Source of the DNA: Schmidtea nova
Taxonomy: Eukaryota
DNA: 64,000 bases
Direction of reading: 5' to 3'
Assembly: GCA_044892505.1 (NCBI GenBank)
Contig: CM097882.1
Span: forward strand, 13,888,001 to 13,952,000
In this document: in pieces, positions 2 to 58,078 of the stretch
How positions within the stretch are numbered: position 1 is the first letter of the stretch
How the letters are laid out: each line of letters begins with the position of its first letter
The notes under the pieces: generated by a model
Told to the model about the DNA's origin: nothing
Databases searched by the model: none
What the model saw: only the letters and a program-made list of their open reading frames with translations
Translations under genes and position numbers: made by a program

Positions 2-2665
2 AGAGAAGCAGATGAAATATTCCTCACAGAAGAGAACAGACAAAAAGAATTGATAGAGGAATTTAAAGAGGTATTGTATAAACAACCATTTGATGATAAC
101 GAAACACTGAGAATAATCAATAAAATAAAAGTTAATGGGATTGAATTAGACAAGCTTAGAAATTTGATACCAATGATGGTAAAGAGGCAAAATATAACAA
201 AAGTATTTGAATTGGAAATAGAAATAAAAGAGATGTTAAAATGTTATGGAGAATATATAAGAAAAAACGAAAGATTGCACGAAACACTAAATGTAACGAT
301 CGAGTCAAACGATAACTACTTTTTCAGTAACAAACAACGGGTACATCCCTGCACTAAAGTGAGCAAATTAAAACGAATGGTAAGAGCCAAATGGCCAGGA
401 ACCATAGGAGAGAAAGATGTAATAAAATTATATTTTAACAGAATAGAATTATTAAGTGACGAGTACTTAATCGATTATGGGATAAACCCAATAAGTGATA
501 ATATTGTGGTAGCCACAGTAGAAAAACGAATGATCGATGAAATAGTGACGCCAGTACCGTCGGTTGAGCTGAGTATAAATGAAGAAAACGATTTTGATAG
601 ATTATTTAGGCTATGGGATAAATCACCTAGCGAAACAAAGAAATCAGTAATGGATGAAGAAATTATATTTAAACCTATAGATGAAAAGTATAGTAACTTA
701 CAAGAAACAATAGAAAGAATAGCTGAGGAAGCAAAAACAAAAGATGCAGAAACATCAAAACGAGGTAGAGGAAGACCTCGAAAATCAGAAATAATAGATA
801 AATCGGAGAATAGAAAGACAGCAGAACGATTAAGAGAGATTACAAATCAACATAAACATGAACAACCAGAGTATCAAGACGATAATAATGACGTAAACAA
901 AATAAAAGAAGTAATAAAAGCAATGAATATTAAGCTATTTCCAGAAACAAAGCCAACAGTACTAATTGAAAATATAACTGAAAGGATGATGTTAATTAAA
1001 AAGGATACTAAAGAACTAGCTACAGAGGAAGCAAATGAAAAAACAGTGTTAAAAATCCTGTTTAATACAGGGATAGATAAAGATAAAATAATAACGGCCA
1101 TGGCATACTTGGCCGCAAGATATAAAAAGCTCATAAAGGAAAATCCAAAAGAGCAATTAGAAAAAGTAGCAACAATGATGTTTAAAAGATTGAAAGTAGA
1201 GGCAATACCATGGATAAAAAAGAAAGGAGGATGGAAAGTATTATATGATAAAGATACGACGAATAAAGAGAGTGATACAGATGATGTAATAAAACAATTA
1301 ATAAAGAAAGCAACAGTAAAACCAAAGACAGAGAGTAAATCGATAACCTCCATAGTAATAGTCATAATCACTTTGTTATTAGATTTAATCAAGGGGGGCA
1401 ATGCAATGGTAGCATATGATTGTCAAAATCCAAAGTGGGGACAAAAATACTCACTGTTAGATGTTGAAAATTGCCCTGAAGCAAATCCAACTAAATTAAT
1501 CATGTCAGAGCCTCAAATATTCCATGTTTATCAAGAATCAGACTTTATTCATACAGAGGCTAAAGAGTGCATAGTAAAGTATCAGGAGGAAGCATATATA
1601 TGTCATGTTGGGGCAAGAACAGTGTTAAAACCTACGTGGACACCCGAAGCAGTAATATTGTCGCCAATAGAGTGTGAAGATGCATTTAAAACAAAGAAAG
1701 TAAAATATAGCGGTCATAAAGGAATAGAACTAGAAGCAAGGATAGGGGCAAAAATGAGACAAGATGTAAATGTTGTGGGATGGACATCAAAAGGAGGATA
1801 TTGTGAAGGAGGAGAATATACAATATGGGGCGAAAAACTGAGTAATGTTGTAGTAAGGAGACACTACATGGTAGAACTGAGAAAGTTCAAAGCATCATTC
1901 GACAGCAGCTCAAAGAAAATGATGATATACAAATTTTGTAGATTAGAAGAATCTTATTGCGATACAGGAGAATCAATGCTAATATACAAAATAGATAAAT
2001 ACGATTGTCAGTTAACAAAATTAAAATCATTAAAATTTAGGGAAATCAAAGGAAAACAGTTCACAGAAGTAGACTCAAAAAGGGTGAGAGATCAAAAAAG
2101 GAAAACAACAATTGTACAAGAAAAAGATACACCAACAATATATATGTCAGAATCTGAAAACGAAGCAATGAGGTTCGTTAGTAAAAGGAAAAGTGTAAAA
2201 TGTGGTAAGGAAATAATACAAACTAATTATGAAGGGATATACATAAGCAAAGAAGAAGTCAAAGATGCAAAACAAAAAGTAAATAAATTCGACGTCAAAC
2301 TTGCATCATACTTCAACAATAAAATCGATTTTTTCTATCATAACCAACTAGTACAATTAGATAAAGTATATCAATCAACAATTATGAGCGATTGCAAACT
2401 CAACAGAGAAATATTAAGGACAAAAATGGCAGTGGCGGTAACAAACCCAGATTTAATGGCACCAATAATCTTCTCAGAAGAAGGAACATTTGCAAGGATA
2501 GTAGGAGAAGTGATACAGACATTTCAATGTAAACCTGTTAGTGTATCGTTAGCAACAAATAATCAGTGCACTAATGAATTACCGGTAATATATAAAGGAG
2601 AAAGGGTATACCTTCAACCAATTACTAGAATATTAACAGAAAAAACATATATACCGAGAAAATAG
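2..2665 (+). pseudogene. Element A polyprotein N-terminal part: ubiquitin-like (~290-530), AT-hook (~760-785), Bcl-2-like (~890-1250), signal/anchor (~1345-1405), chuvirus-like glycoprotein ectodomain (from ~1406)
   Basis: Frame is open from position 2. Motifs: VHPCTKVSKLKRMV...KLYFNRIELLSDEYLIDYGI (Ubl); RGRGRPRK; LFNTGIDKDKIITAMAY and PWIKKKGGW (BH1/BH2); AYDC...SLLDVENC...ECIVK (Mono/Chu-type G). Ends in a one-base frameshift at ~2660. Confidence 0.8.
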
Positions 2666-3799
2666 AAAAATGCACTAACCTATTAGACCCATTATACAAA
2701 ATAAATGACGAAATGTGGATATCTATGTCAGATAGAAAGGAGGCAATGAAACCACTCAAATTAGAACTCATAGAGCTAGAAAAAAGATTAGAGTTTAAAG
2801 AAATCAACGATATGGACAGCAAGGGTATATATACGAGAGAAGCTATAGAAAGTGCAAGAAAACACATGTTATTTCCAAACGAAAAAGAAAGAGTACTTTC
2901 AATAATGGTTAACAGAGTTATCGAAGGAAGTTACGGAGGAAATTACAACTTTGATGTGTTATTATCAAAAGAATACTTTAAAAAAGTAGCATATAAAGTA
3001 CTATATAGCATATGGGGATACTTTGCAGTCCTTGGAAACATGTTTTCTACAATCTTAGGTATATATTATACGGTTGCATTACTAAAAATGATATGTTCTT
3101 CTCTAGTATCACTGAGACAGCTAAAACAAGTATTTGGAAATTCATATAAATTATTAGCATGTTTGTGCCCATTTATAGCTAAATATCTTATTACGGCGAA
3201 ACACGACAAGGAAATACGTTTAATAAAAGTCCAAAGGAATGAAGAAAGGCAATTATTGGTAGATGATGAAAACGATGAGGAAATAATTAAAGCGCATATA
3301 TCACATGAAGGAAATGTACCACAACAAGGACTATATGAAAACCAAAGAGAACAACTAAAAGAGCTACAAGAAAATATAGAAATCAAAATTCCTAGAGAAA
3401 ACAAGAATTGTCACTGTGAACCTAAAAAGATATATGGTTGTTATAGCTTAGAAGTCGAAACAATGGAACGATTAGATGCAGCAAACGAAGCAAGACCAAG
3501 ACTTAAAATAATTATAAACAATATAATCATAAATGCATTAGTAGATACAGGAGCAGCAACATCCTTAATTAGAGAAGATCAACTGACAGATGATCAGAAA
3601 AGAAATATTATGAGCACAACGGATAAAGTAGTATCGTTATCAGCACATTGTATTCCACTAAAGGGAGACATAGAACTAATAGTCGAAACACCAGAACAGG
3701 TAATAAACCACATATTTAAAGTGGTGCAAGAATGTAATAGCATATGTATATTGGGAATCGATATACTCAACAAGTTAGAAAATTGCATTATAGATTTAA
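2641..3799 (+). pseudogene. Element A polyprotein continuation: glycoprotein C-terminus with TM segments, then retropepsin protease (first copy, cut by the insertion)
   Basis: The shifted frame reads IEKCTNLLDPLYKINDEMW...; hydrophobic YSIWGYFAVLGNMFSTILGIYYTVALL; ALVDTGAATSLI. Confidence 0.85.
2848..3799 (+). repeat. 952-bp direct repeat, left copy (partner 11871-12822)
   Basis: Both copies run from GAAAGTGCAAG to ATAGATTTAA and their translations are identical. Confidence 0.95.
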
Positions 3800-4472
3800 T
3801 AATTAATAAAATTTTATTTCAATAAAATATGATAATTTTCCAATGGGACATAGCTCAACATGGAGCATCCCATACTGACAATATTCTAGGGCAGAAGAGT
3901 CTGAAATATCTGGATCAATTGGATGATATTCAGGGTTTTCTCGACTCGATTGTCACTCGAATTTGCCTGTATTGTCCCTGGCAGTGAATGTGATCTTCAT
4001 CGGATTTGGATTCCGGCATTGCAATATTGGATAAACTTCTCTTTGATTTCGAACAATCGGAATCATTGAGGTGTTCTATTGTCACTTGAAATTGTTTGTA
4101 TTGTCGTCAGTGGTAAAGGTATTCTTCTTTAGATTTAAATTCCGGATTTTCAGTTCTTAGTAAGTTTCTCCAGATTTTGTCAAGTATTCGAAAATGTACA
4201 ATAATTATCTTTAGGTTTTCTTTAAAGATTAAAATTTCCTTTTGATTAAGCTAAAGGAAAAATAATAATTAGCTAGACGCTGTTCCTGGACGAGGAAACA
4301 GTGTTTATTCACCGGAGCAAAACGTCAAGAAAAAGAGGGTAAGATGTTTTCAGGTCAAAGATAGAAATTTATAAACAAAATGAAGTAGTAAATAAGAAAT
4401 AATTAAGAAAGGAAAGAAAAAAGGGTAAATAAAATTGAATCAAGAAAAGAAAAAACCCCTCCAAAACTAACA

Positions 4473-4566
4473 AGCTCATCCACACGAGAGGAGAGAACAC
4501 ATTGTTCATCTCCAAATTTATATTCACCATTAGGCATTTGAGTTTCAGTTGGAATCATTTTTGAAA
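4473..4566 (-). repeat. 94-bp exact repeat of 11781-11874 (encodes the first 29 codons of ORF1)
   Basis: Identical AGCTCATCCACACGAG...ATCATTTTTGAAA. Confidence 0.95.
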
Positions 4567-4732
4567 AGAGAAGAATTAAAAGAGATTATTTAAACAATGC
4601 TATGATATTTCAAACTTTTAATTTAAATTAAAAAAAAAATTAAATAAATATCTAACAAAGTTAAGTAATTGTTATCAAAAATAAAAAAGGAAAAGGAAAT
4701 AAATTTAAAAAAAAAAAAAAAGAAGTTTGAAA

Positions 4733-4852
4733 AGTTTCACAGCACCTCGTATTCCCAGGCGGTCACCCATCCAAGTACTAACGAGGCCTTAACCTGCTTA
4801 ACTTCCGAGATCGAACGACATCGGTTGAATTCAGACTCGTTTAGTTGTTGTT
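4733..4852 (-). rRNA. 5S rRNA: 5S rRNA gene; nt ~19-120 well conserved, 5' ~18 nt replaced or overlapped by the retroelement ORF end
   Basis: Minus strand reads CTGAATTCAACCGATGTCGTTCGATCTCGGAAGTTAAGCAGGTTAAGGCCTCGTTAGTACTTGGATGGGTGACCGCCTGGGAATACGAGGTGCTGTGAAAC, followed by Pol III terminator T-runs. A and C boxes are recognisable. Confidence 0.92.
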
Positions 4853-6241
4853 AATTCGAATGAATTGCTCCTCGTTTTCGAAAATGGGTAGTGTACCATT
4901 CTTGTGGAAGTACCATCGTTTTGCCGAGTGTGCAATATTACTAATTGCACACTTTTTTAATAACCCAGCCACCTGGCCTTTATTTATGCCAATTTTCTGA
5001 AGGATCTGAGGAGTTTCTACAGGAAAAGAGCCAAGAGCGCCTATAATGCAAGTATCGAGTTCAACTTTAAAGTCTGGCTTGACAGTTTGAATATCGATTT
5101 TCAGAGAGTTGTAATTTTCCAAATTCAATAAATTTACACGCTCAAAGTTACATAAAGAATCACTCGGACATTTAAGGTCAACAAGGAAGATTCTTTTTCT
5201 AAGAACATCAGTTATCAGCAAATCCACCCGCTCTTTAGAACTCGGAACAAGTGAACAGGCATGGTTGACAACAACAATTAGGTTTTTATTAAGTTGGAGA
5301 TGATTAGAAATGAGTTTAAGGCAAGCATCGTGTCGTTCAGAGCCCAAAGTCATATGAACTTTGCACGATTGAAGTACATGTGATGAGGTTTCATCCTCAT
5401 CATGACATCGACGACAGAGTCTTTTCTCTCCACTATTATAAGGCTTTGCAAGGGTGGAAAGAGTGTTGGTGCGTGCTCTATGGACAAAGTTCCAAGCAAA
5501 CTCGGATAAATCACTGCGATAGATAGCTTTGTTTACTGTCGGTGAAAGCTTTACAGATGAAGCGATAATGTTTGAGACACAGCTTTTTTCCCATTTAACC
5601 AAGTATGAATCATTGAGCGCTAAGTGCAACACTTTTGCCGTGGTCTCACGTTCGTCCGGAGTTACAATACATGTACCACGTGCGTTCGTATTAATATAGA
5701 GACATAGTACATTATTGGTGATAGTAAAAGTGATGTTGATGTCGTGCGTCTTCTCAAAAAAAGCAATCGCAATCCTGGCTCTTTGAAATCGAGTTTTCTT
5801 TCCAGAATGGGGAGAAAGAGACTCTTTTCCATTGAGCCATTCAAGACTTTCCTGAAGAGTTGGATTTTTTATCCCAAGACGTGGACTGGTGATAAAAGCT
5901 AAAGAGTCAAGATTAATTTTCCTTGTAAAGTCACACTGTGACGTGATTAATCGAAAAAAGTGTGTGATAGTCTGTGTGTGATATTCGTCGAGGAGATCAA
6001 CACAGTTTGCTCCCCCATTTTCAGTTGAATTGTAGAAATAACTCACTTCCGAGTGATTAGGCAAAAGCAGCATTTTTCTTAAGGTTTTCCTTAACTGGCT
6101 AGTGATGTTAACTGAAAGATTTTTATTATCATAAGATTTTGAAAGTGCACTAGTTTTAATTTCACGGGTTCTAAAAGGGAAGATCAAGCGAGAATGGATA
6201 AATACTTTGTAAGCTTTAAGTTTTTGCCACCCAAGCAAATC
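4841..6241 (-). pseudogene. NeSL-like ORF2 C-terminal part: RT thumb, CCHC knuckle, RLE endonuclease
   Basis: GGANCVDL, CRRCHDEDETSSHVLQSC, RHDACL, ERVDLLI, LVDLKCP. Confidence 0.9.
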
Positions 6242-9200
6242 CTAATCAGCAAGTTTTTTGGTGTCTTTGAGTGCCTCCAGTAGAATGTCGTAAGGACTTT
6301 GGTCAGTTCCTTCGCCAACTGGCACACCTAGGTATTGATAAAATTCATTAGACAGTAGTTTTTTTATTTTAACTCCATTGATTGAAATTTCACTGTCAAT
6401 GTGAATTCTAGGAAGTTGCAGATAAGCACATTTCTCTGGCCGATATTCAAAGCCTATATTGGTTGCAGTTGTGACAGCAGTGTTAATGAGTTTTTGCAGG
6501 TCATTAGGAGATTTAGCGAAAATTGCGATGTCATCTGCATACGCGAGAATTTTGACAGATGATTCTCCAATAGCAAAAGCATCACAGACTGTTCTGGAAA
6601 CAGCTTCCAACACAGGATTAATCGCCAAAGCAAACAAAATCATGGAGATGGGACATCCTTGCTTGACACCCTTTTTAATTGGGATCTTTGGTGTCAGAAT
6701 AGGACCACAACTATAGAAGGAGCTTGTGTCAGAATATAAAAGTTCTAAGATGGAGGTAAAGTCTTCACTTACCCCAGTGTATCGGAGTAAGGACCACATG
6801 TAATCATGTGGGACACTACCAAAAGCATCTTTTATGTCGAGCCAAGCAATGGAAAGAGGACAGTTTTTACTATATTTGGAATGTTCCAGAGCAGCAGACA
6901 GAATCGAGTTGTGTTCAACGCAACCTTCATGTTGGGAGCCACCTTTTTGTCCAACATGTAATAGTTTATTAGAGTTTATCCAGCGTGCAAGACGAGAGGC
7001 TAGACAGGACGCAAAAACTTTGTAGATGACGGATAGCAAGGCAATCGGGCGCCAGGATGATATATCTGAATATTTATCATTTTTATTAGGTTTCGGGATT
7101 AGAGTGGTTTTGTAGACCTTCCAACTGTCCGGTATGGACTTCTCTGTAATGATCTTGTTGAACAAGAAAGTAAGTATATGACCATCAGGATCTAGACGCA
7201 ACAAGTCACGATATTGTAATCCATCAATACCAGGACTAGTGTTGTCAGCCCTCCTAAGTTCATACATCACTTCCCTATTCGAGAAGCATTTCAGAGGAAG
7301 TACATTTTGAGAGTGTTTACAAAAGTCAAATAGTTTCTCCCAATGCCCACGTGCAGGTGTTTCATGAGAAAAGTTTTTAACTATGTTCTGAAAAGTTGGT
7401 CGAGCCGGTACATCGAAATTGTTGATGACCTTATTGACAGCTGACTTCATATCTTTCATGAATAAATCGATCAATTTATTTTTGCTAATTTTAGAAGTTT
7501 TAATTTTGGTTCCCAAGTATGGTTTTTTAGCTGGTTTCACTTTTTCAGGGAATTGCTCCATAATCGCGTGAATAATTTCATTTGTGCTATAATTTGCCCA
7601 TTTAATTAAAAATAGTTCAGCATTAGTTCTCTTTTGTTTTATCGGAACTCTCAATATAGCTTTATGAATAATTTTAGTGTTACTTGGGTTTTCTATATTA
7701 TCGTGCTGCCTGACAAAGATAAGCAAAGAGCCAACCACGTCTCCAATCTCGCGCAAGTTTAAATTTACAAGGGGCAAATTTTTCGAGAAATTATTAATAA
7801 ACGCACACAAGAGAATTTTACTAACAAGACCTGAGCTGCGGATGTCATGGGGACATTCAGAAAGATTCAAAACGCGGCCAGGTGTATCTTTTATGTCATT
7901 TATTTTATTTCTCAGAATTCTGCAAGTAGACAGATAATTGTCATTCACAGTTAAAGATGTTGGGTTTACAAGATAAAAGGTGTCAACACTATAATCGAGA
8001 ATGAGCAAAATTTCACGATGTTTAGGGGGAGCAACAATCGCAAAGATGATTTGTGATTTGCATATATTTTCAAAATTCAGAAAATCATTTATGTGTTGAG
8101 TACAATCGTCAAGAATAGCCGTGCACATGGTCACACTCAGTAAAAAAAAAGTCTTGGGTAAATTTAAATTATCAAAAAACATTGAAATTATTTTATCCGA
8201 AATTTTAGAATTAAGTAAGTTTAGATTCTGAGAGATTTCATTTGTTTCCCTTAATTTTATTGAGTTTAATGATTTGTGTATATTTAAAAAATGAATAACT
8301 TTATTAAACAAAAGTTTCTCAAGAAGCTCAATAAAAACCGACGCAAAGAGAATTGTATCATCAGAGATGTTGGGCACCAGTTCCAAGCCGTGGTTAGGTT
8401 TAAAAGAAATGTTTGTTGATAGAAAGAACTTATTCAAGTAGTCAGTAATATTTTCGCCGATGCCAAGTAAACGGTCAGAAATAGGTTTTTCTTGATTGTT
8501 AAAAACGTAACTTGCACCATGTGTAATAGAAAAAAGATATAAACACCAGTAATTATCATTCGGGATAACACTGATGACATGGTTAATCCCTAGAAAATTT
8601 TTTAACGTGACATTTTCTCTAATAAATGAGTTATTTCTAGAGATTATATTTAGTGTAAGTTCTTGGGACAGGACCAAGATGTCTTTATGGTCTTTAAACC
8701 ATTCGGTAATCAAAGACGAGATGCAGGCATTACGTTTCATAAGGAAGATGTGGTCGTGTTTATTAGAAATATTTAGAGTTGTGTCTTTTTTCACTCTCTT
8801 AGGGTTAGTGAGTTTAGATTCACCACCTCCAGATGATTTTGGGACCATGTTATTTAAAGTAAGTTTAAATTGGTAGACATCTTTTCTGATATTTTCTATA
8901 AAATCATCAGGAAATTTTTGCCATGTACCACTTATCATCATAGCATAAGCACAGATGTAAGGCCCACAGTCATAGTTATTATTTTGGTAGACAAAGTTTT
9001 TATGTGGGTGGAAAAATAGTGCAGCTTTAAGGTTAAAAAGACGATTCAAAGCGATTGTAGTTTGAAGAGCGTCGGCTCTATTGGTCAACGAATGGCGGTT
9101 GTTGAAAAGAGGATCTACAAAGTATGAAGTTAAAGAAGTTTTACAATACACAAAAATAATCCAATGAGTTTTATTAATATTTATTGGACATAGTAGAGTT

Positions 9201-9466
9201 TGCGCAGATATTACTCTGTCTGGCATTCGAAAAATGGTTTCGCAAAGATTTGCCCGTAAGATTTCTATTTGAAAGCATTTTATTGGAGCAAATTTAGGGT
9301 CATTGATATGACATTCAAGATAGTTATCAATGTCATCATCAGTAAACCATATTTTAGGGTCACGCAATATATTTGTGATTTTAGATGGTTTAAATTTTTT
9401 GGGAAATGTGCTGTCTGCATCAGTCTCTGTTGAGATTGGGGCAGATATTGAGACTGGTGCAGGCAC
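6242..9466 (-). pseudogene. NeSL-like ORF2: Ulp1/C48 protease domain(s) + reverse transcriptase, cut by in-frame TAG
   Basis: RT motifs as above. TAG at 6244-6242 is followed in frame by DLLGWQKLKAY. Confidence 0.92.
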
Positions 9467-9472
9467 ACAACT

Positions 9473-11866
9473 TCATTTGTTTTTGATAGCCGTACGTTTG
9501 GGTTTTTTAATAGGCTTTTTCGAAGAGTCTTGAGACTCACTATCAATTAATTCAGTGTTTGATGTCAAATTTTCATCAATATCGACAGGAAGTTTATTTG
9601 TAGGGTTTTCTACCAAATTGTAATTTATTTCGGCTTCATCGCATTCAGGAATAGAAAAAAGAGGCTCGTTTACAAGCTTTTCAGTATTCTCATTGTTCCC
9701 CATCACAGGCTTATCAACCTTTTCTATAGCAGGTTTTTCATTGACAGTTAGCTTAATAGAGCATAAGATTCTAGATATACCTTCGCTCATTTCTGGAGTA
9801 CAAATCTTTCTACAGTACTTGGGAACGCGGAAAGTAAATTTATTTTTTAAAAGAAAAGTTTTTTTATCTCTAATAAGAAAGAATAAGAGTCTTTTCGCTT
9901 TCAAGGTGTTTGAGTTATCCAAATCGTCTTGGAATTCGTTAATTCCACGTCCTATATTTTCAAGTGCCGTTAGTTGTTGTGCTTTATTTGGCAAAAGATT
10001 TTCGATAGAATCAAAGAAGTTGTTAATATCCAAAATAGTTTTTGGAGAGATGATGTTGTTTATTTTATCGATCTCTTGAAGTATAAAAGTTTGTTTGAGT
10101 TTTAGGAAGCGCTCTTGGCAGCTTTTGTTATAATAGGAGTTGGTAGGTAGTTTTTTAATTAGTTCCATAGCCCAGGATTCAATATTATCGCAGCATAAGG
10201 AGTCTACACTCTCAAGCTTCACAATCGAGTGCATTAGGAAGCAGTTACGAATGTAATTATAAACATATATATTAAATGATAAATTTATTTTGCATTTTAA
10301 AGATCCCTGTAAGTTTAGGTAATTTAAGTAAAATATTATATTTATTAATTTCTCAGGTGACTGAGGCTGTTTTAATAATTTATTGAACTCAATGTCCACA
10401 TTTGACATTTCTACAAAGTCTAATAAGCCAAGATTAAACATTATGTCAGACGCACCATTATCGTGCAGTCCAACAGAGTTTTGAAAAATTTTATTTTTAA
10501 CAAATTTACCCCCAACAAATGAAATCTCATTAGGAAAATGTTTTATAGTTTTTAATTCTTTAATTAAATTAATTAATAAATCAGGATACCTGTTCACGTT
10601 TTCCATAAAGTAGAGCTTTGGAATTTCAGGAAAGGATCTTGTTAATTCTTCCAATTCAGAGCGAGAAAGATCGATTGGGTTTAGATCAGTGCTGTCGCCA
10701 ACTAATTCATCGGAATTAATAAGGTCTAACAGAAGAAACTCTCCATTTGAATACTTTAACTGAGAATTGATTAAGAAATTCGGAATCTCTCCACTTTGTT
10801 TTAGTTCGTCTAAAATTTTATTAATTCGGATCTCCCGATCCTTAACATTTTTTATCGTAATAGTTCCTGAAAATCTTTTTGTGAGGGCATAAAGAAACTT
10901 CTTTATGCAAAGAGAGGCAGGAATAAACTTATTACGGTTACTCAAGGGTTCAATAACTTTGGAGCCTATTAGGTAAGTTTTATTTTTAGATTTTTTACCA
11001 TCAAGAGCGTTTGGTTTGTAATCAGTGGGCCCAAACTCAATTAGGACACAAATATATCTATTTCTATAAAAGAGCTTACTAAATCCAGCGATACCCAGCA
11101 AGTTGTCCGTTCTCGGAATTTTACTTAGTAAATTATTTATTTTAGAAAATTTCTGTGCTGAATCTCTTAATTTAATCAATTGGGAAAGTTGTGGGAATGA
11201 TTCAAAAAGTTTTTGTCTTTCTCTTTTATAAAGGTGACGTGGGAAACTCGTTAAGAAACGTTCAACCTTTGAAAAATGTTTTACATGACTTATATCAGGA
11301 TTTTCCCCATCAAACTTAATCTTAACTATGGAATTTGACTTCTCAGGTTCAGCAGACTTCTTTTCTACTTCCACTCCCACAAAAAAACTTTCATTTGATT
11401 TTCCATTGATCGAATTGTCCAGTTTAAGCTCTGGAAAATCAACTTTTTCTGAATATGCTGAAATCAACTGAGATTTATTTTTATTATCATTTTTAAATAA
11501 ACTAATTTTTATCTGGGACGGCTCAATTTTATCCCCTTTCAAGTCCCCGACCAGAGAAATCCTCCTATTATCTCCAAAAGTAAATCCATCAACATTTGGG
11601 TGCTGATCCACAGATCGAACACTATCAGCATTTCCAATCTCATACAATCGTTGCGATTTCGCAAGATTGTCAAAAAAAGAAACATTATTTTTATCAAAAA
11701 ATTGTGTTTCATTGTTATTTAAATTTAAAAAATTAACAATCAAATCAAGCTTACTAAGGATTTTCTTGAAAGAAGCATCCAGCTCATCCACACGAGAGGA
11801 GAGAACACATTGTTCATCTCCAAATTTATATTCACCATTAGGCATTTGAGTTTCAGTTGGAATCAT
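9473..11866 (-). CDS. NeSL-like element ORF1 / N-terminal region (~800 aa, no recognised domain)
   Basis: Long ORF, same frame as ORF2, separated from it by a single TGA. Confidence 0.7.
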   Translation of the reverse strand: MIPTETQMPNGEYKFGDEQCVLSSRVDELDASFKKILSKLDLIVNFLNLNNNETQFFDKNNVSFFDNLAKSQRLYEIGNADSVRSVDQHPNVDGFTFGDNRRISLVGDLKGDKIEPSQIKISLFKNDNKNKSQLISAYSEKVDFPELKLDNSINGKSNESFFVGVEVEKKSAEPEKSNSIVKIKFDGENPDISHVKHFSKVERFLTSFPRHLYKRERQKLFESFPQLSQLIKLRDSAQKFSKINNLLSKIPRTDNLLGIAGFSKLFYRNRYICVLIEFGPTDYKPNALDGKKSKNKTYLIGSKVIEPLSNRNKFIPASLCIKKFLYALTKRFSGTITIKNVKDREIRINKILDELKQSGEIPNFLINSQLKYSNGEFLLLDLINSDELVGDSTDLNPIDLSRSELEELTRSFPEIPKLYFMENVNRYPDLLINLIKELKTIKHFPNEISFVGGKFVKNKIFQNSVGLHDNGASDIMFNLGLLDFVEMSNVDIEFNKLLKQPQSPEKLINIIFYLNYLNLQGSLKCKINLSFNIYVYNYIRNCFLMHSIVKLESVDSLCCDNIESWAMELIKKLPTNSYYNKSCQERFLKLKQTFILQEIDKINNIISPKTILDINNFFDSIENLLPNKAQQLTALENIGRGINEFQDDLDNSNTLKAKRLLFFLIRDKKTFLLKNKFTFRVPKYCRKICTPEMSEGISRILCSIKLTVNEKPAIEKVDKPVMGNNENTEKLVNEPLFSIPECDEAEINYNLVENPTNKLPVDIDENLTSNTELIDSESQDSSKKPIKKPKRTAIKNK

Positions 11867-11870
11867 TTTT

Positions 11871-12822
11871 GAAAGTGCAAGAAAACACATGTTATTTCCA
11901 AACGAAAAAGAAAGAGTACTTTCAATAATGGTTAACAGAGTTATCGAAGGAAGTTACGGAGGAAATTACAACTTTGATGTGTTATTATCAAAAGAATACT
12001 TTAAAAAAGTAGCATATAAAGTACTATATAGCATATGGGGATACTTTGCAGTCCTTGGAAACATGTTTTCTACAATCTTAGGTATATATTATACGGTTGC
12101 ATTACTAAAAATGATATGTTCTTCTCTAGTATCACTGAGACAGCTAAAACAAGTATTTGGAAATTCATATAAATTATTAGCATGTTTGTGCCCATTTATA
12201 GCTAAATATCTTATTACGGCGAAACACGACAAGGAAATACGTTTAATAAAAGTCCAAAGGAATGAAGAAAGGCAATTATTGGTAGATGATGAAAACGATG
12301 AGGAAATAATTAAAGCGCATATATCACATGAAGGAAATGTACCACAACAAGGACTATATGAAAACCAAAGAGAACAACTAAAAGAGCTACAAGAAAATAT
12401 AGAAATCAAAATTCCTAGAGAAAACAAGAATTGTCACTGTGAACCTAAAAAGATATATGGTTGTTATAGCTTAGAAGTCGAAACAATGGAACGATTAGAT
12501 GCAGCAAACGAAGCAAGACCAAGACTTAAAATAATTATAAACAATATAATCATAAATGCATTAGTAGATACAGGAGCAGCAACATCCTTAATTAGAGAAG
12601 ATCAACTGACAGATGATCAGAAAAGAAATATTATGAGCACAACGGATAAAGTAGTATCGTTATCAGCACATTGTATTCCACTAAAGGGAGACATAGAACT
12701 AATAGTCGAAACACCAGAACAGGTAATAAACCACATATTTAAAGTGGTGCAAGAATGTAATAGCATATGTATATTGGGAATCGATATACTCAACAAGTTA
12801 GAAAATTGCATTATAGATTTAA
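11871..12822 (+). repeat. 952-bp direct repeat, right copy
   Basis: Matches 2848-3799. Shares 4 bp (GAAA) of microhomology with the end of the insert. Confidence 0.95.
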
Positions 12823-13388
12823 CAGATAATACGATAAAGAGAAAAGCAATTAAACATAAATCCAAGTTCACAGAAGTTGTTGCATTAGAAGCATTTGAAT
12901 TGGAATATGAATGCGATCATATTATTCCCTTAAAAGTTAACATCAAAAGTGAGGACACTTTTATTTTTGAGCCAGAAACGGCAATTATACAAAATCAGAA
13001 TATAATGCTAACCAATGAATGCGTAATTCCGAGAAAGGGAATAATACCATTGAGAATAGCAAATTATGAAAAAAGTAATGTTAAAATACACAAAGGTACG
13101 AAATTGGGAAAATTATTCAAAGGTGAATTAGAAAAAACGTACGAAGTTAGTGAGATAAGTGTGATGAATGATAACGGCAAGAAAGTAGTCGAACCTAGTA
13201 AGATAAATAATATAAAATCATATGACAAAGTAAAAATTAATAATGAATACTTAACAATAACACAACAAGCACAACTACAAACATTGATAGATAAATATAG
13301 TGATGTTTTTGCAAAACACGAATTTGATCTAGGAGATACCGATATAATCAAACATGTAATAGATACAGGTAATGCGAGACCAATATAA
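11889..13388 (+). pseudogene. Element A: duplicated glycoprotein tail + retropepsin protease + post-protease linker
   Basis: DTGA. Ends at an in-frame TAA that is followed by QRPYSVPY...WASPIVPVKKKDG. Confidence 0.9.
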
Positions 13389-16300: not shown

Positions 16301-16769
16301 AAAAACAGAACAATTACCCAAGAATATAACAAAAAATCATAACATAACAAAAACACTCGATAGAATAAAAAGCACAACAACGACATCAGATAATATACTA
16401 AATACCACACCACATACAAACGAAATACCAACAAGCACTGAAATAGCCAAATTCCAAAAACAATACAATGCCAAAAAACAAAAACAAGAACCTATCAAAA
16501 TAAGGCAAGGAAGACCAATAGTGATACATAACTTAGAGGAACTACAAGCATTTCGTAAAGAGGATAAAAAGCCACATTGGCCTTATTATATCATCACAAC
16601 ATCAATAATAGCATTAACAATTTTAGCTTTAATAACTAGCGTACAAATTTATAAAAAGTACAAATGGAAAAGGCAGCGGTATCGGAGCCGACAGGTCAGA
16701 AATGTACCAGGGCATTTCCATTTGGGCAAATATATACCAGGTGAATATACAAAATCCACATTGGTGTAA
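13389..16769 (+). pseudogene. Element A: RT-RNase H-integrase fused to signal + FN3-like + Thr-rich stalk + TM; third integrase catalytic residue is K
   Basis: CIDYRKLN, LPFGL, YMDD, TDASG, H..ALGGH..C..C, TDKGTNF, GLVKRFN (E>K at 15408), GPY; then LIISAIFLTIITFVGS, LTPNTIYRICI, TM YYIITTSIIALTILALITSV. Confidence 0.92.
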
Positions 16770-25250: not shown

Positions 25251-25485
25251 TCAAGTGACTTATCTTGTCAATTACCCGATTTTCAGGTTGTTTGTTTACG
25301 TGTGTTCATTTTATCTTTGATTATTCTGTTAAATAACAGATTTATTCGTTCCATCTAATTCGATTCATTTGTTATATAGGCGCTTTGTGGTGGTCCGGAT
25401 GATGTGTTCTCATTTTGGCTGTTTATTTGTAAGCCTTTTTATCTTTGTTAATTCCTAATAGTAGTAGGAAGTGAGCCCGCCAGAT

Positions 25486-44296: not shown

Positions 44297-44381
<85 letters not shown>

Positions 44382-46080
44382 TTAAAATATAAAAATTCGA
44401 ATAAAAAAATGTATATTATAAAAATTAGAAATTTTATTATTATATTATTCTCATAAAATTATAAATTTAAAATTTATAAAAAGTAATATAAAAATGTATA
44501 TTATAAAATTAGAGATTTTATTATTATATTACTTTCATAAAATTATAAATCTAAAATTTATAAAAAGTATTATAAAAATGTGTATTATAAAAATTAGAAA
44601 TTTTATCATTATTTAATTTTCATAAAATTATAAATTTAAAATTTGTAAAAAGTATTATAAAAATTATTATTATTATTTTAATATAAAATTATTATTATTA
44701 TTTTAATTTTAAAAATATTTTATATAATTTATATATAGTATATTATAAATACCCCCACGATATCTCAAAATCATAACACATCCCTATTTGCAAAAATTTA
44801 CATCCATTTCATTCAATAACATTTCCCATACTAATACACAAGCAACATACATTTAAAATACAATATACACACATACACAGTATCATTTATTAGCATTCAA
44901 TAGTTATATACACACAGGCAAACCATACTGAAAATTCTACACAGTTATGTTAGTCTGCATCACACATCCAGAAAAACCCTACAAAAATTTCATTCACTTA
45001 TATCTATCATTCAACCATACCATAAAAAATTGAATATACCCAGCCAAACTTATTACAATCAAATAGGCCTTTTACATTATAGTTTAATTTACAAAATTAC
45101 ATAAAAATAATAAATAATAAACGAAAAAGAATAAAAAACTAATATCAAAAGAAAAATTTTATTAATCAAAATTGATAGACTTCATTCCGTTTGAGGAATA
45201 AAAACCCCCGACAAGGATTTTTCTTGTTTGTGGTTCTGAAGAGGCCGGTTCCTCGTATTCGCTTTGGAAATTTTTCTAAAATTGTTCAAAATAAATTATA
45301 ATTCTAAAATAATCAAAATTTTACTTGGTCGATAGAGTTGGCAATTTTGCTTCGTAGGAGCTGGAGTTCTAGTTTTTTTGACCCATTTTGGGTGGGAGAA
45401 TTTTCCTCTGACTTCGTAGTTTCCGGGGAGATCCATTTCTTGTTGATCTGAACTTTAGAACTCATTATTTAATCAATTTAGTGAAAAATTCAGAAACTTA
45501 CATTTAAAATTAATATGATTTTTAAATTGAGTAAATTTGTCCTTTTGATTAAATTAGCAATTTTAAACAAACGGAAATTTTATTTTTATTATTTCTAAAC
45601 TCGATAAAATTACGGTAATAATTAGAGTTTTTCTTAAATTTTAAATGCAGATTAAAATTTTTCTATAAAAATAAAGTATTTTATGTATTAATTATCATAA
45701 ATTGCAATATTGGTAAAATTTAAGGTTATATTAGTGTTTTCGATGCTCGGAATAATTTATTTGGATGCAATAATGAATTTATAGTTATGTAGAGTGTTTA
45801 TGTTGAATTTCCGATAAAATTTTGTTGAATGCTTATAGATAAATCATTAAAGGAGGGACAAAATTGGCATTAAACCTTCTATCGGTAGCCCTTGGACCCA
45901 GGAGATATTCGGTCAATCATAGTTTCGTATTGACGACGCTCACTGATTGCGAATACCCACTCACTTGTTACAGTACCATCGTTACATAGTGACGGGTAAC
46001 AAGATGGTTATTTCAATGTTTTATGTGTTGAGTTGTTGATGAGAGCCATAGTAACGTCAAGGTCATATTGACGATCAACA
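42290..46080 (+). repeat. Putative 5' LTR (~3.8 kb, TGTTG...CAACA)
   Basis: The first 1151 bp match 62843-64000. The right end is inferred from CAACA 18 nt before the PBS. Confidence 0.7.
44300..44378. repeat. (TA)n microsatellite inside the LTR; others at ~21288-21317 (TA)n and ~47231-47286 (TAT)n
   Basis: Seen directly in the sequence. Confidence 0.95.
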
Positions 46081-46098
46081 ACCCACCATATAAAAATT

Positions 46099-48532: not shown

Positions 48533-49015
48533 ATGGAATCAATTGAGCATATTTTACTACGAATCGAGACGTTTTTTAATTTTGAAAATGATCCATTGCT
48601 GGTGTTGAGCGAGAAACTCGAACGAGTGAATGAAATAAAAGATGAATTATTGTTGAATCCTAGACCACAACCTGAGAATCTGATAGTGATTTCAGGAATT
48701 GTAGGAACAACAAACGATATTTCGTTAGAAACGGTTTATGAATTACAACGATTGCGACTGAATAATCCGAATTTCAATCTAAAAATACAAGAATGGATTG
48801 GTAAAATCGATAAAATCATGGATAAGCTAGAGAGATCGATAAATCAACAGATCGATTTGTTTGAAAGATGTTATATTTGTCGACAAAGAGAAGCGAACAT
48901 CTTATTCATGCCATGTGGGCATTTGCGTTATTGACAGCTGTGCTCGAGAGAAATAAAGAGATGCGTAATCTGCAAACAGACAATTGATGACAAAATCGTC
49001 GTATTTTGTTCATAA
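48533..49015 (+). pseudogene. IAP/MDM2-type C-terminal RING protein with TGA at a Cys position
   Basis: CYICRQREANILFMPCGHLRY*QLCSREIKRCVICKQTI. Confidence 0.85.
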
Positions 49016-50421: not shown

Positions 50422-51282
50422 AATGTTTGTGGATATTGTTGAGAAATTTAGGAAAACGTTTGAGAGATAGAATTAAATAAAACTGCGCAGTTAAAATTTT
50501 GTTATGACAGAGAGAAACGTTGAACGCGAATACCTAAGGTGTAGTAATATAAACCGTTAACAAGAGCAGATAAAAGACATCGAGAAATACTTAGGAAATA
50601 AAATAATGGCCATGAATAGATAACGAACAAGACATTTTAACCTCGAATACCGAGATGAGTGTGAAAATAAGTCGACATGATCANNNNNNNNNNNNNNNNN
50701 NNNNNNNNNNNNNNNNNNNNNNNNNNNNNNNNNNNNNNNNNNNNNNNNNNNNNNNNNNNNNNNNNNNNNNNNNNNNNNNNNNNNNNNNNNNNNNNNNNNN
50801 NNNNNNNNNNNNNNNNNNNNNNNNNNNNNNNNNNNNGATACGACCATATAGATAATTATTACGAGATATAGATAATTTAAAATTTGAGCTCAAAGTAAAA
50901 GGGGGGTAAATAGCGTCGATGAAGAAGCGATTTTTATTTAGATTGTACAACAGATCAAAGCCAAGCCAAGAGATAGTCAAATCAATCAGTTATTGAAGAG
51001 GTATATATAGAAGAAAAGAAGAAAAAGAAGTCTTATTGAAAAGGAAAGAAGTAAAAGAAAATAAATCAAAGATGATCCAATTGAAGATAAAAGAGAGAAA
51101 TTAGCAATCGATATTAAACACAAATTGATAATATTACCAAACCAACCAAGTTCGTAAAGTCGAAAGATAAAGAGTCAAATCTATTAAAAAACGACGAAAG
51201 GAAATTACAAAGAAATAAAGCTGATAAATAAAGAAATAAAATCCACAATATTAGAAAGTTTGTAGCCGATTTTCAGAAAGAA

Positions 51283-54200
51283 ATGGAGGAGAATCAGAAA
51301 GTTACCAGTGTAAACTCGGAAGATAATTTATTAGAAGAAGAGCAGAAAATAACCAGTCCAAACGTAGAAGATAATTTACAGGAAGAAGAAAAAGAAGTAG
51401 AAACAATGAATATGCAACTACAACAGGATATCGAAGAAAAAGTAAATAAAATGATAACCGAATTATCAGACGTTGAAATTGAAAGAAAGGGAAATGTATA
51501 TGAATTTTCAGTAAAAGATATGGAGGGAGAAGAAAAGAAGAAGTTTGTGGAGAAATATAACCGAAAAAGAAGAGAAAGAAGAAGCAATGATGATACATGT
51601 AGCATGGACGAGAAAAGGGATGAATCTATGACAATCAAATTAGAAGAAGTGGCACAAAGATTGTTAACCATTACCATAGAAGAAATGACGAAAATGAATC
51701 AAAAGTCGGAAGAAAAGAGGAAATCAGCGAAGCTCGAAAGAATAAAACAAACAGAGACGTCAAAGACCGAACGATTAATCAGTAACCTAAGCAAGAGTGC
51801 AGGAAATCAATGTGAAACAACAACTGAATTACTAAAATGGGTTATAAAAAATAGTGCAAATATATCAAACATGAGATTGATAGTGAGAGAAATCGAGAAA
51901 TGCAGAGTTTATGCCCTTGGTATTCAACACAATTTGATGACATCATGAGAAAATGGAAACAACTAGAACAAACAAACGATGATCCACAGATGTGTAAATT
52001 AAAAGTTCAGTTTCCGAGTCTAGAAAAAATAAAGATGAATGTATCATTAACAACAAAGATCAAAGAGATAAAAGAGAGATTACCATTTAACTTACCATTT
52101 CACTTAAAATATGATGGAGAATCGCTGGATGATGATATAGAAATCGGTGTAACCCCGATACAAATCGAAACAAGTAATAAATTAACTGTTGATAAAATTT
52201 CAGGAAGCGAGTTGACCAGAAAAGCAAGAGGTGAAGATAATCCCGAAACAACGATAATTGCAATGATGAAAACTCCAGCTGGTCCAACACTTACAATTAA
52301 CATCGAAGTTAATGGCGTAAAAGTAGACGCAATGATAGATACTGGCGCAAATATATCAGCAATAGATATCGATATGATACCAGAAATGTTACGGTTATGC
52401 ATCGAGAAAACATCAGTAGACGTAATAACATGCAGCAAAGAATCTGTGAACATCGGTGGAAAAATATGGACGGACATCGAATATAAAAATGTAAAAATAT
52501 CAACTTATTTGACGGTAATAAAACAACTGGGTGCCTCATGCATTATTGGAACAGACTTAATACCAAAATTGTTAAAAGGATCTGTAATCAATTTGAATAC
52601 GATGAAGTTGAAACACCAAATTGAAGAAAATTGCACACGAGAAACAATAATAGAACAATCAAGTCAAGAAATGACCAGAAAAGGACAAGTATGTATGTTT
52701 CGAGAGAATACAAATGACGATTGGCTACATCGTATATTAACTACGAGCAGAAAAGTAAATCAGCCAACAACAATATTTGAACAACCTAAGATAGTTGACG
52801 ATGTAAAAATGGAGCACCGCAAAAAGATGGAATTGATCATTGAAATTACCAAAGAAATCATGCCAGAATGGTCAAAAAGTAAAGATCTATTCGAAATATT
52901 AGGAGGAGTAAGCCTAATGGTTGAGGAATATGCCAAAGGAAATGAAACGACAGAAGCGATGAATACCATAAAAGAAAGATTACCAATATTATTTACAATT
53001 GCCAGTTTTAAAGATGAGATACCATTGTACCACGCAATAAAAAGTGGGAATGAACAGAGAATGTTTGAAATCTTAAACTCATGGAAAAGTGCAAGCAACA
53101 TACCAACACGAAAAACTGGAAAGATCAAACACCCTTGATGATAGCAATTGAAAAAGGAGGATCCAGGAAACTCATAGCAGAACTGATGAGAACCGGATCA
53201 AGTTTTAAAGAAAGAGATGATAAAAATGAAACGGTGTTATCATATGCAGTGCAAGCAAATAACCATCAAATAATCAAATATATTATGTCAAATGCGACAG
53301 AAGAAGATATTGAAGTGCTCAGTTCAGATCCAAATCCATTAGTAAATGCAGTGAACAAAGATGCCGACGAAACAACAGCAAAAATGATTAAATGGTTACA
53401 TCCAGTTACGCATGAAGGAGTGATAAATGTCAATGACAGATTTGAAGATGGTGAAAATATAATCATGAAAAGAGCCATGAAAAGAAAATGGAAAATGTAT
53501 AAAACGATTAAAGCATTGCTGCAAAGACCTGATTTTAGATTCACGAACAACAAAAAAGAAAAAGAAAGAATTGGATCTAAAAGACATGAATTATATCAGC
53601 GAGTCATCATATGGAAAGAAAATATAAAAGAAAGCAGAATTCAACGAATCTGGAACAATGCTAAAGATGAAATAACCAAGAGAGCAAATATAAAAGCCGA
53701 TGCAAATGAAATAGCTAAAAGATATGAGGAAATAATAAAATTAATAAATGTCGAGGACGACATTTTAAATAGAGCCGAGGATGGTTCTGATGATCACAAT
53801 AAGCCTGACGATGAAGATGAAGAAAATGATAACAACAAAACAAAGAAAGATGACAATGAAAGTATCAACAGAAACAATGACAAAGATGAGAAAGACGATG
53901 GAAAAAGCAATAACGATGAAAAGGGAACGAAAGTGATGAACATAGCCAAGAAACTTCAAATTATGAAAAACGAACAGCATGTCTACATAAAACTCGAATT
54001 AAAGACATAATATTGCTGATAATGATGCTGTCAGCATTGAAAGGAACGGAAGCTGATGATAAAAGAAAACCAGTACAAGTATTATTACAAGGAGCAGATA
54101 ATGAAGAAGCATGTTGGAGTAGCATCAAATTGCAAAGTAAAGGAGATAATCCAGTCAAATGCCAACGAGCAGAAGGAGGAGAAATCCAAATAAATGGATT

Positions 54201-54390
54201 GAAGCGGGATGCAAAATACAAAATCTGTGTTTACAAAAAGAAAGCATCACAAGAAATGTTTAGAACACTCGTATGTCAGACAGTAGCACATAATGGTTTA
54301 AAAGTCATCCAAGAAAACATAAAAGTCATAGTAACCGACGAGCCAGATGAGAACATCAGAGTGTCGTCGAAACGCAAGTTGTCAGAGTAA
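51283..54390 (+). pseudogene. Element B polyprotein: helical/Gag-like region, ubiquitin-like, retropepsin, ankyrin repeats, acidic linker, signal, FN3-like; three single-base frameshifts
   Basis: VSLTTKIKEIKERL..LKYDGESLDDD (Ubl); AMIDTGANISAI; PLYHAI, QTPLMIAIEKG, TVLSYAV (Ank); IILLIMMLSALKGTEA; INGLKRDAKYKICV (FN3). Confidence 0.8.
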
Positions 54391-55178: not shown

Positions 55179-55277
55179 AAATTTAAAACCAGTGTAAATA
55201 AAATGTAAAAATGTGAATATGAATAAAAACTTGGTATAAAAAAAAACAAAACGAAAAAAATTGTAAATTATTTTAGA

Positions 55278-56681
55278 ATGCAGACCGAGAATCAGCATAA
55301 ACAAGAAGAATTGATCGAACTATATCAGATACTACAGAGACAACGGATAGAACCAACAGAATTTCAAGAAAGATTTAAATGTAAAGTATGTAGAAATTTA
55401 TTGATAGAACCCAGACAAACTGAATGTGGATGTCGAATATGCACTAATTGCGTGATGAAAATAATACGAACTAAACAGAAGCTATGTCCTGAATGTGGTG
55501 AAGCAATAATAGATCAATTTGACCAAACCAGACCAGATATCGCAATGAATCGGGAAATAATGAACGCAGCAACAACCTGTCCAAATAAACCATGTGTATG
55601 GAGTGGGCCAATAAAATGGATCGCCAAACACCTTTATAATTGTGATGATACGAAAGCCAAATGTAAGTGGTGTGAGGAAGAAATGTTGAAGAAAATCAAA
55701 GACAGTCATGAGGAAATGTGTGAACAACGACAGGAAATCTGTGAGTTTTGCAACGAAACAGACGCTTGGATAGTGTTAAAAGATGAGCATTGGAATATAG
55801 AAGAAGGGCAAGTATGTGACGAGTATGAAGGTAATTGTAATCAATGTGGAATGGCAGAAAACGTGAAGCTAAAAGAACATTGGGAAATATGCGAAAAGAA
55901 GCCTACTGCATGTCCACTAAAATTATTCAATTGTAAAGTGAGATTACCAAAAGAGGAAATACAAAAGCATGTAGACGAAAATAGTGTAAATCATTTGAGA
56001 ACCGTTGTGGAAGCTATTGGAGCAACCGCACTGGTAATTGGAGAAGCCAACACAGAAATAAAATCACACAAGATCATGATACAAGAGATGTTGGATACGA
56101 GAGGAAATTTTGAAAGAATAAGAGAACAAATGATCCAAAAAATGAAACTATTAGACCAGAAAATAGCAGAAATATCAACAATCCAACAAAGATTGGAAAG
56201 CATATTGCCAACAATGGAAGAACTACCCGTCACACCCTACTATTGGAAAATCACAGAATTTACAGAGAAATTGAGACTAGCAAGAGAAGGAGGTCAACGT
56301 GTATGGACAAGTCCACCTTGTCACAGTTGGAAACATGGGTACAAGCTTAGATTCAAAGTATATCTAACGGGAGACGGACTAGGAGCCGGAACTCATTTAT
56401 CTGTATATTTTCAAATATGTAAAGGAGATTATGACGATTGGTTAGAATAGCCCTACGATTGCGATATAACTATGATGATCGGAACAAAGGAAAACAACGT
56501 TCGGGAAGTATTCAGACCAAACTTGAGGAAGGTAGAAGCAGCTTATAGGAAGCCGATCGAAAACTACAACGTAGCTGTAGGAAATCCACGTTTTATTGCC
56601 TTACATCTATTAACCATAGAACAATCATTGTATTTGGTAAATAATATCCTGTATCTGATTATCGAAGTAAGGAAGCCGTAG
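55278..56681 (+). pseudogene. TRAF: TRAF-family protein (RING, zinc fingers, coiled coil, MATH); TAG at 56448
   Basis: CKVCRNLL...CGCRICTNC...CPEC; WKITEFT...SPP...GYKL...YLTGDGLGAGTHLSVYF...GDYDDWLE*P; continues in frame to YLIIEV. Confidence 0.92.
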
Positions 56682-56908
56682 TGAAGATGGAAAAAGTGTA
56701 AATATGTCTGTATTATAATGAAGTATCTGTATCATAATGTACAAAATAAAATTAGAAAATCACAAAAAACATAAAAATTAAAAAGAAATATAAAAATGAG
56801 AAAAACCAAAAAAAAAAAAAAAAAAAATCAAATATAAAAATCAAAATTTTGTAAATATAGAAAACAAAAAATTGTGAAAAATATAATGGAGAAAATATTG
56901 TAGATACA

Positions 56909-58078
56909 ATGACTGGAAGGAAGATCGTGAAAATACGAGAAGATGACAGATCATTCAAGAGTTTATGCGAATTAATGAAAAGAGATAAAGAAAGGATGTC
57001 AAAACCAATTTCTTCAGAAATAATTTATTGTCAATTTACACGAACAATGCCGAATGTTCCTAAGGAAAGGAGTTATGGAAAATTCAAAATTATCGATGAA
57101 ACGTTGAAAAACGAGAACCGAAGATATATAACCTTTTTACAACAAGACAATTTCTATGAAAAGCAATACAGAAAATTCGCCAAAGAGGGTTTGTATTTTG
57201 CAGGGACAATTGAGAAACCCGATAAAGTAATCTGTGTATTTTGCAGAATTGAAATAGAACCTTGGAGAATTAACGATGATCCACTAACAGAGCATAGAAA
57301 ACTTTCACCCACATGCCAGTTTGTGTTAAAGGCATGCGAAAAACCAAGAAAACCAGCAACAATGAACAATGACGAAGAAGATAAACCCAAAATAGTAACG
57401 ATAACTTCGACAGGCCCAGCAAAGATACGATTCATAGAAGTTGACCCAAAATATACGATTAATGGGAGAACTAACACTTTTGTAGATAAAAAGATGGGTA
57501 TCAGATTAGCAACAGAAGGTTTTTATGCAATAAATGAATCAACCACTGAATGTTCAGAGTGTTGAATACAATATCAATTACCAAAAGAAGAAGGAAAATA
57601 CCTGAAACACAACGAATATTGTAAATATGGAGAAGAATTATATGAAGACGAAGAACCGATCAATTATAAAAACCCAGAGATGCCTGTTAATGAATTATTA
57701 GTAGAAAAGATATTAGATGAACCACGAACTCAAAAGGCAATGAAACGCACCGGCAAAAGCGAAATATTTATGAAAGAAGTCATCAGAGAGAGATTGAGAA
57801 GAAATGGAGAAACATTTGGATCAACCCTAGAATTCTTTAAAGCTATAATACAGTTCACCAGAAAATCCCAAGTTGTCAACCCAGAATCATGTATCAAGAA
57901 AGTTATATTAAATAAACACCCCTGTTCAATCTGTTGGATAAAGAAAGTGGAAGTTATTCACTTACCATGTGGACATTTGTTAGCATGTGAAAATTGTAGC
58001 AATAAATTGAGATTGTGCTCAATGTGCAGGAAACCGGTCGACAAACGGATCAAGGGATTCCGTTATGCCGATCAATAA
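56909..58078 (+). pseudogene. IAP: Inhibitor of apoptosis: BIR-BIR-UBA-like-RING; TGA at 57563 in BIR2
   Basis: FAKEGLYF...VICVFC...W...DDPLTEHRKLSPTCQF; LATEGFY...CSEC*...H...C; CSICW...LPCGHLLACENC...CSMCR. Both parts share a frame. Confidence 0.93.

Follow-up and report, generated by a model that had tools for sequence, protein, structure and literature searches.

The window analysed here is a stretch of 64,000 nucleotides from the planarian Schmidtea nova (GenBank assembly GCA_044892505.1, contig CM097882.1, positions 13,888,001 to 13,952,000, forward strand), part of an AT-rich genome of 1.25 Gb. Its flagged apoptosis-related domains sit in three separate insertions, each with a target-site duplication (TSD): element A, a Ty3/Gypsy retroelement with a Bcl-2-like domain; element B, a retroelement with TRAF, BIR and RING domains; and element C, a palindromic Maverick/Polinton with an intron-containing Bcl-2-like gene. 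We give a probability of about 0.66 to the reading that these are two retroelements of the Burro lineage plus a Maverick with a separately captured host Bcl-2 gene, used to block apoptosis. The window copies themselves are mostly dead as regulators, the cargo genes of C and B being broken.

Element C (25460..34554, no strand assigned) is non-autonomous, terminates at both 25460 and 34554 in AGTAGTAG, and is flanked by the TSD CCTAAT. The long terminal inverted repeats of Maverick/Polinton elements begin with an AGTAGT-like motif. A pPolB remnant lies in the central spacer (30038..30321, +) and is 80% identical at the DNA level to the pPolB region of locus L048; of the pPolB, integrase, ATPase and capsid genes of an autonomous Maverick, C has only this remnant. 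A small Cys-rich open reading frame (ORF) at 29286..29609 (−), with its mirror at 30562-30876 (+), resembles by eye the small ORFs of other Mavericks in the genome and had a ratio of nonsynonymous to synonymous substitution rates (dN/dS) of 0.18 between subfamilies. The window copy is a 9.1-kb deleted member of its family: eight fetched relatives matched along both arms, and the five that were measured spanned 14.6-15.2 kb with perfect 6-bp TSDs. Of six fetched copies whose two ends could be placed, five had such a TSD, perfectly duplicated as in the window copy. An exact 31-mer from the C end occurred 2530 times in the genome (1287 forward, 1243 reverse; control 0) and an exact 30-mer from exon 2 of the C Bcl-2 gene 491 times (control 0). 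A decayed pPolB at 36414..39729 (−) was considered as part of C and rejected; it belongs to a different, older Maverick, lies beyond the ends and TSD of C, and was not found beside the eight other C copies.

The Bcl-2-like gene is present in both arms of C. The left copy (27893..28240, +) consists of an exon 1 remnant (27893-28018), a predicted intron (28019-28060) and exon 2 (28061-28240), which holds BH2 and a hydrophobic tail; its mirror in the right arm (31921..32268, −) carries the same deletion, some 480 bp, with the start codon among them, having been lost from both arms at a 4-bp microhomology. The fetched relatives bear a two-exon gene in each arm, with 164 amino acids (aa) predicted after splicing, and in the eight best-match copies none of the 16 arms had a stop other than that in the intron and the terminal one. 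Pfam PF00452 matched the window copy at E 5.8e-5 and the undeleted copy L001 at E 5.3e-6; C scored 27.4 bits, under the cut-off of 31.4 bits. Once the 42-nt GT..AG segment is removed the C protein is colinear with the host gene described below, which supports the predicted intron. Across C subfamilies the intron was nearly invariant (0-1 of 42 sites changed versus 4-6 of 35-39 fourfold sites). The segment (L001:8251-8292 in the undeleted copy) is in frame, so that an unspliced message would give a 118-aa protein with a hydrophobic tail; two C copies read straight through it. Four unlabelled runs, which are contigs of one study, contained no joint at the intron, and this speaks neither for nor against splicing.

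In 11 of 11 pairs with L001 the dN/dS of C Bcl-2 was 0.12-0.32 (Fisher p at most 2e-4, by a method that ignores transition bias), and it was 0.18 between C and the Bcl-2 of a second Maverick family, D. As judged from these substitution patterns, the values show past constraint on C Bcl-2 while the elements multiplied, with the beneficiary, element or host, not distinguished. It is quite improbable that the gene is a passenger carried along in expanding inverted repeats with no present function. Both window copies lack a start, young C copies are 99% identical, so that their intactness is uninformative, and one comparison involving D was without significant constraint, but the ratios across C subfamilies and between C and D, and the nearly unchanged intron, argue against a mere passenger.

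A Pfam scan of the genome found about ten host-like Bcl-2 loci, of which L026 is close to C. No near-identical second match to L026 was seen among 150 scored. This host gene adjoins what we read as a peptidase-like gene, has an intron after BH2 (exon 2 is in L089), and is 85% identical to its counterpart in S. mediterranea, the Bcl2-like protein C9WPR4. Knock-down of planarian bcl2-1 leads to systemic cell death (PMC6970515). Family D was found by searching the genome with L026. It is a palindromic Maverick of about 14.8 kb located outside the window (L061:2572 to L062:7344), with an intronless Bcl-2 gene in both 3.9-kb arms, a 6-bp TSD in all three copies checked, an open 1427-aa pPolB-type ORF, an adenain and a TBP-like ORF; no integrase or ATPase ORF was seen in it. 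All 150 scored genome matches to its Bcl-2 were at 74-100% identity.

The C protein shares 44% of its residues with D and 48% with the host gene. D Bcl-2 exceeds the Pfam cut-off, and its structural model had a predicted local distance difference test (pLDDT) score of 84, with top PDB matches that were all Bcl-xL/Bcl-2 (template modelling score about 0.65). On BH1-BH2 similarity, a helical fold (predicted, for D) and a C-terminal hydrophobic tail, the C and D proteins are assigned to the Bcl-2 family. Viral Bcl-2 proteins (those of African swine fever virus, gammaherpesviruses and poxviruses, and adenovirus E1B-19K) have the same predicted fold. Their identity to C and D is 10-21%, at E above 0.005, and the resemblance of C and D to the planarian host gene is far greater. 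Searches for homologues of the two Maverick proteins gave nothing at E 0.01, and a profile search of 1.84 billion representatives returned 21 matches, only two of them close (P0002 and P0003). P0003, a 104-aa protein from a European Nucleotide Archive contig, groups with C Bcl-2 at 99/96 and ends about where the C intron starts, which hints that another data set contains a gene like that of C. Pro-survival Bcl-2 members typically carry NWGR in BH1. The non-canonical BH1 and shortened N-terminus of the Maverick proteins might suit a decoy or pro-death protein that aids release of element particles or kills competing cells. We regard this as very improbable, since among solved structures pro-survival Bcl-2/Bcl-xL come nearest in both sequence and fold (although these dominate the PDB) and the donor host gene has the same unusual BH1.

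The ends of C are 89-93% identical over about 800 bp to those of 17-18-kb Mavericks that encode pPolB, integrase, ATPase, protease and two capsid-sized ORFs; TBP-like genes are present in these too, and one of the end-sharing elements, L094, gave Pfam matches to rve, Pox_A32 and TBP. From the first 100 listed, twelve elements with the ends of C were chosen on the distance between their ends. All 12 had a 6-bp TSD and seven had pPolB, protease, TBP and ATPase together; Bcl-2 was found in none of the 12. Since neither C nor D has the host intron, both reading on beyond BH2 through its position, and the C tail is colinear with host exon 2, the host gene may have been captured by way of its processed mRNA. 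C would afterwards have gained its own 42-nt intron, and would be mobilised by the enzymes of the 17-18-kb Mavericks with shared ends, Bcl-2-less in each sampled case.

Element A enters the window in its polyprotein (5' part, 2..2662, +), the frame of which stops within the envelope (Env) region; Gag and the 5' long terminal repeat (LTR) lie upstream of the window (L018). The Bcl-2-like domain (BH1-BH2, PF00452) is at 1037..1234 (+), open in a 1377-aa frame, and corresponds to aa 346-411 of ORF 2-2662 with E 8.6e-6 and 26.7 bits, below the cut-off; against the PDB it gave weak matches to Bcl-xL (E 0.03). It is placed between a ubiquitin-like-looking stretch, seen by eye and without a Pfam match, and a Monjiviricetes-type Env. 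The end of Env, protease (PR), reverse transcriptase (RT), RNase H (RH) and integrase (IN) lie at 11850..16766 (+), and the 3' LTR (TG..CA) at 19128..20248 (+), about 99% identical to the 5' LTR and with a 4-bp TSD, TTAT. The LTRs are 1.1-1.2 kb, and A is about 14 kb once an inserted long interspersed nuclear element is removed. That insertion, a non-LTR retrotransposon with an Ulp1 protease and RT (3809..11870, −), lies between direct duplicates at 2848-3808 and 11871-12831, an unusually long target duplication of 961 bp with copies 99.7% identical. The window copy of A is thus split, and has a frame change within Env.

A relative of A, L040, has a single 3059-aa ORF with zinc knuckle, Bcl-2, Monjiviricetes-fusion-type Env, PR, RT, RH and IN; its order, Gag-BCL2-Env-PR-RT-RH-IN with Env in frame between Gag and Pol, is that of Burro. 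The A Bcl-2 region matched at all 150 genome loci scored (the best 150 of 1666 candidates); in this list, biased toward the best matches, 141 had no stop in the match and 29 lay within frames of more than 3000 aa. Between the A1 and A2 subfamilies dN/dS was 0.15 for the Bcl-2 core and 0.06 for RT. As a separate observation, A is itself inserted in a Maverick: pPolB sequence adjoins it (L018:5279-7131) and the end of that Maverick follows its 3' LTR (20249-20537).

Element B has a 3.8-kb 5' LTR (42289..46088, +; TSD CTTG) that is 97.7% identical to its 3' LTR, which begins at 62842 and extends 2590 bases beyond the window. Its genes, all on the + strand, are an upstream RING ORF (48533..48931), a reduced polyprotein with SUMO-like, PR and ankyrin regions (51232..54387, in four frame pieces in the window copy), a TRAF gene (55227..56678; RING, zf-TRAF and MATH domains at 55227-56447, MATH E 1e-11), an IAP gene (56861..58078; BIR 57146-57325 with E 1.9e-16, RING 57914-58045) and an accessory ORF of 275 aa (60694..61518); a coiled-coil ORF is also borne. 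In the window the TRAF gene has a stop at 56448, inside MATH, and the IAP gene one at 57563; in many other copies the IAP gene keeps a 399-aa open frame. The BIR of B matched at all 150 loci scored (150 of 1317 candidates), and B copies dominated the BIR family search. PR runs into ankyrin in all six further copies of B. With the A polyprotein as tblastn query, no Gag, Env, RT, RH or IN match was obtained in window B or in L056-L058, and the two whole B copies examined differ from Burro1-4 and GYPSM1 in showing no Gag, Env, RT or IN; B looks like a high-copy non-autonomous derivative. It was also found in tandem arrays that repeat about every 21-22 kb (L056-L059 and the BIR match list). A primer-binding-site pattern for B, too specific, returned only two matches.

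Burro-type elements are abundant in this genome. The Burro elements described in PMC6431247 combine TRAF, BIR, ankyrin, SUMO and BCL2, with BCL2 before an in-frame Env. Element A shares with Burro1-4 and GYPSM1 the published order of Gag, BCL2, in-frame Env, PR, RT, RH and IN, and differs from giant Burro in its size of about 14 kb, against some 30 kb, in the 3059-aa ORF of L040, and in that no TRAF, BIR or ankyrin domain was found in it. It is a compact Burro-lineage family, not Burro1 itself. Element B has the multi-kb LTRs of Burro and, from the published inventory, RING, SUMO-like, ankyrin, TRAF, BIR and coiled coil. Both assignments were made from published descriptions and 30-kb genome copies.

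Two copies of a 30-kb Burro (L114-L118) were compared with A and B. They have the gene order of B (RING, SUMO-like, PR, ankyrin, TRAF, coiled coil) and also A-type Gag, Env, RT and IN, with SUMO-like, PR and ankyrins in one 5660-aa polyprotein. Identities to B were 26-27% for the upstream RING (27% for the same-position ORF of the window copy), 31% for SUMO-like, 50% for PR, 25-27% for the ankyrins, 36% for TRAF and 29% for the coiled coil; to A they were 35% for Env, 50% for RT and 45% for IN. This colinearity and these identities make B a reduced Burro and place both A and B within the inventory of a single lineage. BIR was not found in the two 30-kb copies. A Bcl-2-like stretch with a BH2-type ending, between SUMO-like and Env of the 30-kb Burro, was a candidate by position only and was set aside; neither Pfam nor BLASTP nor a small profile supported it.

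The finding of A, B and C together in 64 kb was set against chance. Rough mental arithmetic took 250-490 loci for C and, for A and B, first-look candidate counts, which differ from true copy numbers; about 1-3 of some 19,500 64-kb windows of the genome would then be expected to hold all three. The meeting of the elements is roughly what copy numbers predict, and the clustering requires no special cause. Elsewhere in the window a PAH-domain fragment lies at 21635-21862 (+; Pfam E 4e-4), which we take to be possibly a piece of a Sin3-like gene.

The history of the Maverick Bcl-2 was compared with that of the Burro Bcl-2. Core identity to L026 was 48% for C, 51% for D and 20% for Burro A; Burro Bcl-2 was at most 26% identical to host, C or D, its nearest non-Burro row being D at 26%. 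Between A and C, BLASTP aligned only 15 residues and core identity was 19%. A five-residue deletion is common to L026, C, D, P0002 and P0003 and is not found in Burro or most other rows. In trees from which L038, L032 and L074 were excluded after the first, C and D grouped with the host gene (88/92; 77/97) and Burro lay on a long outside branch. Since approximately unbiased (AU) tests did not exclude the alternative and the trees were unstable, it is the indel and the identities, rather than the trees, that carry the case for independence. These support a different history for Maverick and Burro Bcl-2, and the Maverick gene was likely copied separately from a host bcl2-like gene. A single capture shuttled between the classes, with a shared element-borne ancestor and a fast-diverging Burro copy, is improbable: the AU tests leave monophyly unrejected, D is the nearest non-Burro row to Burro A, and another gene is common to B and Maverick-like loci, yet Burro retains the five residues missing in L026, C and D, and the closeness of C and D to the host gene is double their closeness to Burro.

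The gene held in common is the accessory ORF of B, which has full-length homologues beside Maverick core genes at L046:4968-5567 (−) and L062:8986-9588 (−) and is apparently shared between the retroelement and Mavericks. It has a hydrophobic N-terminus, a Cys-rich block and a second hydrophobic stretch; a Pfam scan gave no convincing match. A BIR ORF known from a single match and unrelated to the B IAP lies among unannotated ORFs at L082:4633-5274.

The original prediction was upheld in what it observed and in part of its interpretation. The apoptosis domains proved real in A, B and C, the Bcl-2s of A and C are indeed dissimilar, and 'Polinton derivative' was the right description of C by its termini, TSD and pPolB remnant. 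Cargo of apoptosis regulators in both retro- and DNA-element classes was likewise upheld, with hundreds of copies and past purifying selection, the counts being 150 of 150 scored for A Bcl-2 and for BIR, and 491 occurrences of the C Bcl-2 30-mer. Its three convergent captures were not supported. The Maverick history differs from the Burro history, but A and B are both of the Burro lineage; there are two capturing lineages, Burro and Maverick, and convergence likely spans two element classes rather than three elements.

Several observations tell against the reading of a separately captured, apoptosis-blocking Maverick Bcl-2. The dN/dS pairs share one reference, L001, and are not independent; a zerofold-versus-fourfold test gave p 0.003-0.04 in five of six C pairs and 0.12 in the sixth; and D versus L028 had a dN/dS of 0.51 that was not significant. 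BH1 of the Maverick proteins reads WSH or WSK, the host gene being also unusual with WSR, and the single-sequence model of the C protein was poor (pLDDT 46). The clade of host and Mavericks was unstarred (88/92, 77/97) and collapsed when a further long branch was added, the first tree had placed Burro inside that group at 86/83, and the AU p values for a single clade of element-borne Bcl-2s were 0.11, 0.30 and 0.31. C and D may, by their grouping (68/84), represent one capture. The identity of C9WPR4 with bcl2-1, the loss of which by knock-down is lethal to planarians, is presumed, and helpers with Bcl-2 may exist, the 12 elements having been chosen by spacing from the first 100 listed.

By analogy with viruses, a block of apoptosis is the most likely role of the Maverick Bcl-2. 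Viral Bcl-2s such as adenovirus E1B-19K bind pro-death Bcl-2 members. A tail-anchored Maverick Bcl-2 would do the same on mitochondria and would damp the damage response to element replication in the cells where the element multiplies; C, D and the viral proteins likely share the logic of keeping the infected cell alive. Whether the host gains as well was also considered. The BIR-RING protein of Burro1 (B-IAP) is reported to protect stem cells from caspase-mediated death, a proposed host-transposon mutualism (Lee et al., Dev Cell 2026, as cited in PMC13465017); B likewise has a gene with BIR and RING in a Burro element, whereas the cited report concerns an IAP in a retroelement and the Maverick case a Bcl-2 in a DNA element. 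A Maverick Bcl-2 kept and amplified for protecting stressed planarian stem cells is possible but doubtful. This planarian precedent, the amplification of Bcl-2 by C despite loss of its own enzymes, and the de-silencing of Polintons in normal differentiation speak for it; selfish benefit explains purifying selection on element lineages equally well, Polintons are targets of Piwi-interacting RNAs, and the window copies decay like ordinary insertions. Such a benefit is compatible with viral-style use of the gene by the element, not exclusive of it.

Burro cargo is already known (PMC6431247), and Bcl2/IAP homologues in Polinton-type elements (adintoviruses) are mentioned in PMC8502044. C and D differ from the Polintons described there in that a host donor can be identified, the gene occupies each arm of palindromic families that are non- or semi-autonomous, one family has an intron, and Bcl-2 is absent from the sampled helpers. 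No description of a planarian Maverick Bcl-2 was found among the titles and opening abstract lines returned by searches of the Maverick/Polinton and planarian-element literature; supplements or Repbase may mention one. Apparently new, in that we found no description of it, is a high-copy palindromic helper-dependent Maverick that amplifies a recognisable copy of a host Bcl-2 gene. Tentatively, and with considerable doubt, enzyme-less Mavericks may have amplified a host survival gene to about 500 copies and may supply it to Bcl-2-less helpers, and perhaps to the stem cell, converging on the Burro strategy. If expressed, the Bcl-2 copies on elements would exceed the host gene in number by hundreds to one, and the mutualism reported for Burro1 would then be a single instance of something more widespread, in retro- as well as DNA elements. 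With its donor recognisable, one intron lost and another gained later, this capture would also give an uncommon view of the way in which a vBcl-2 enters a virus-like element.

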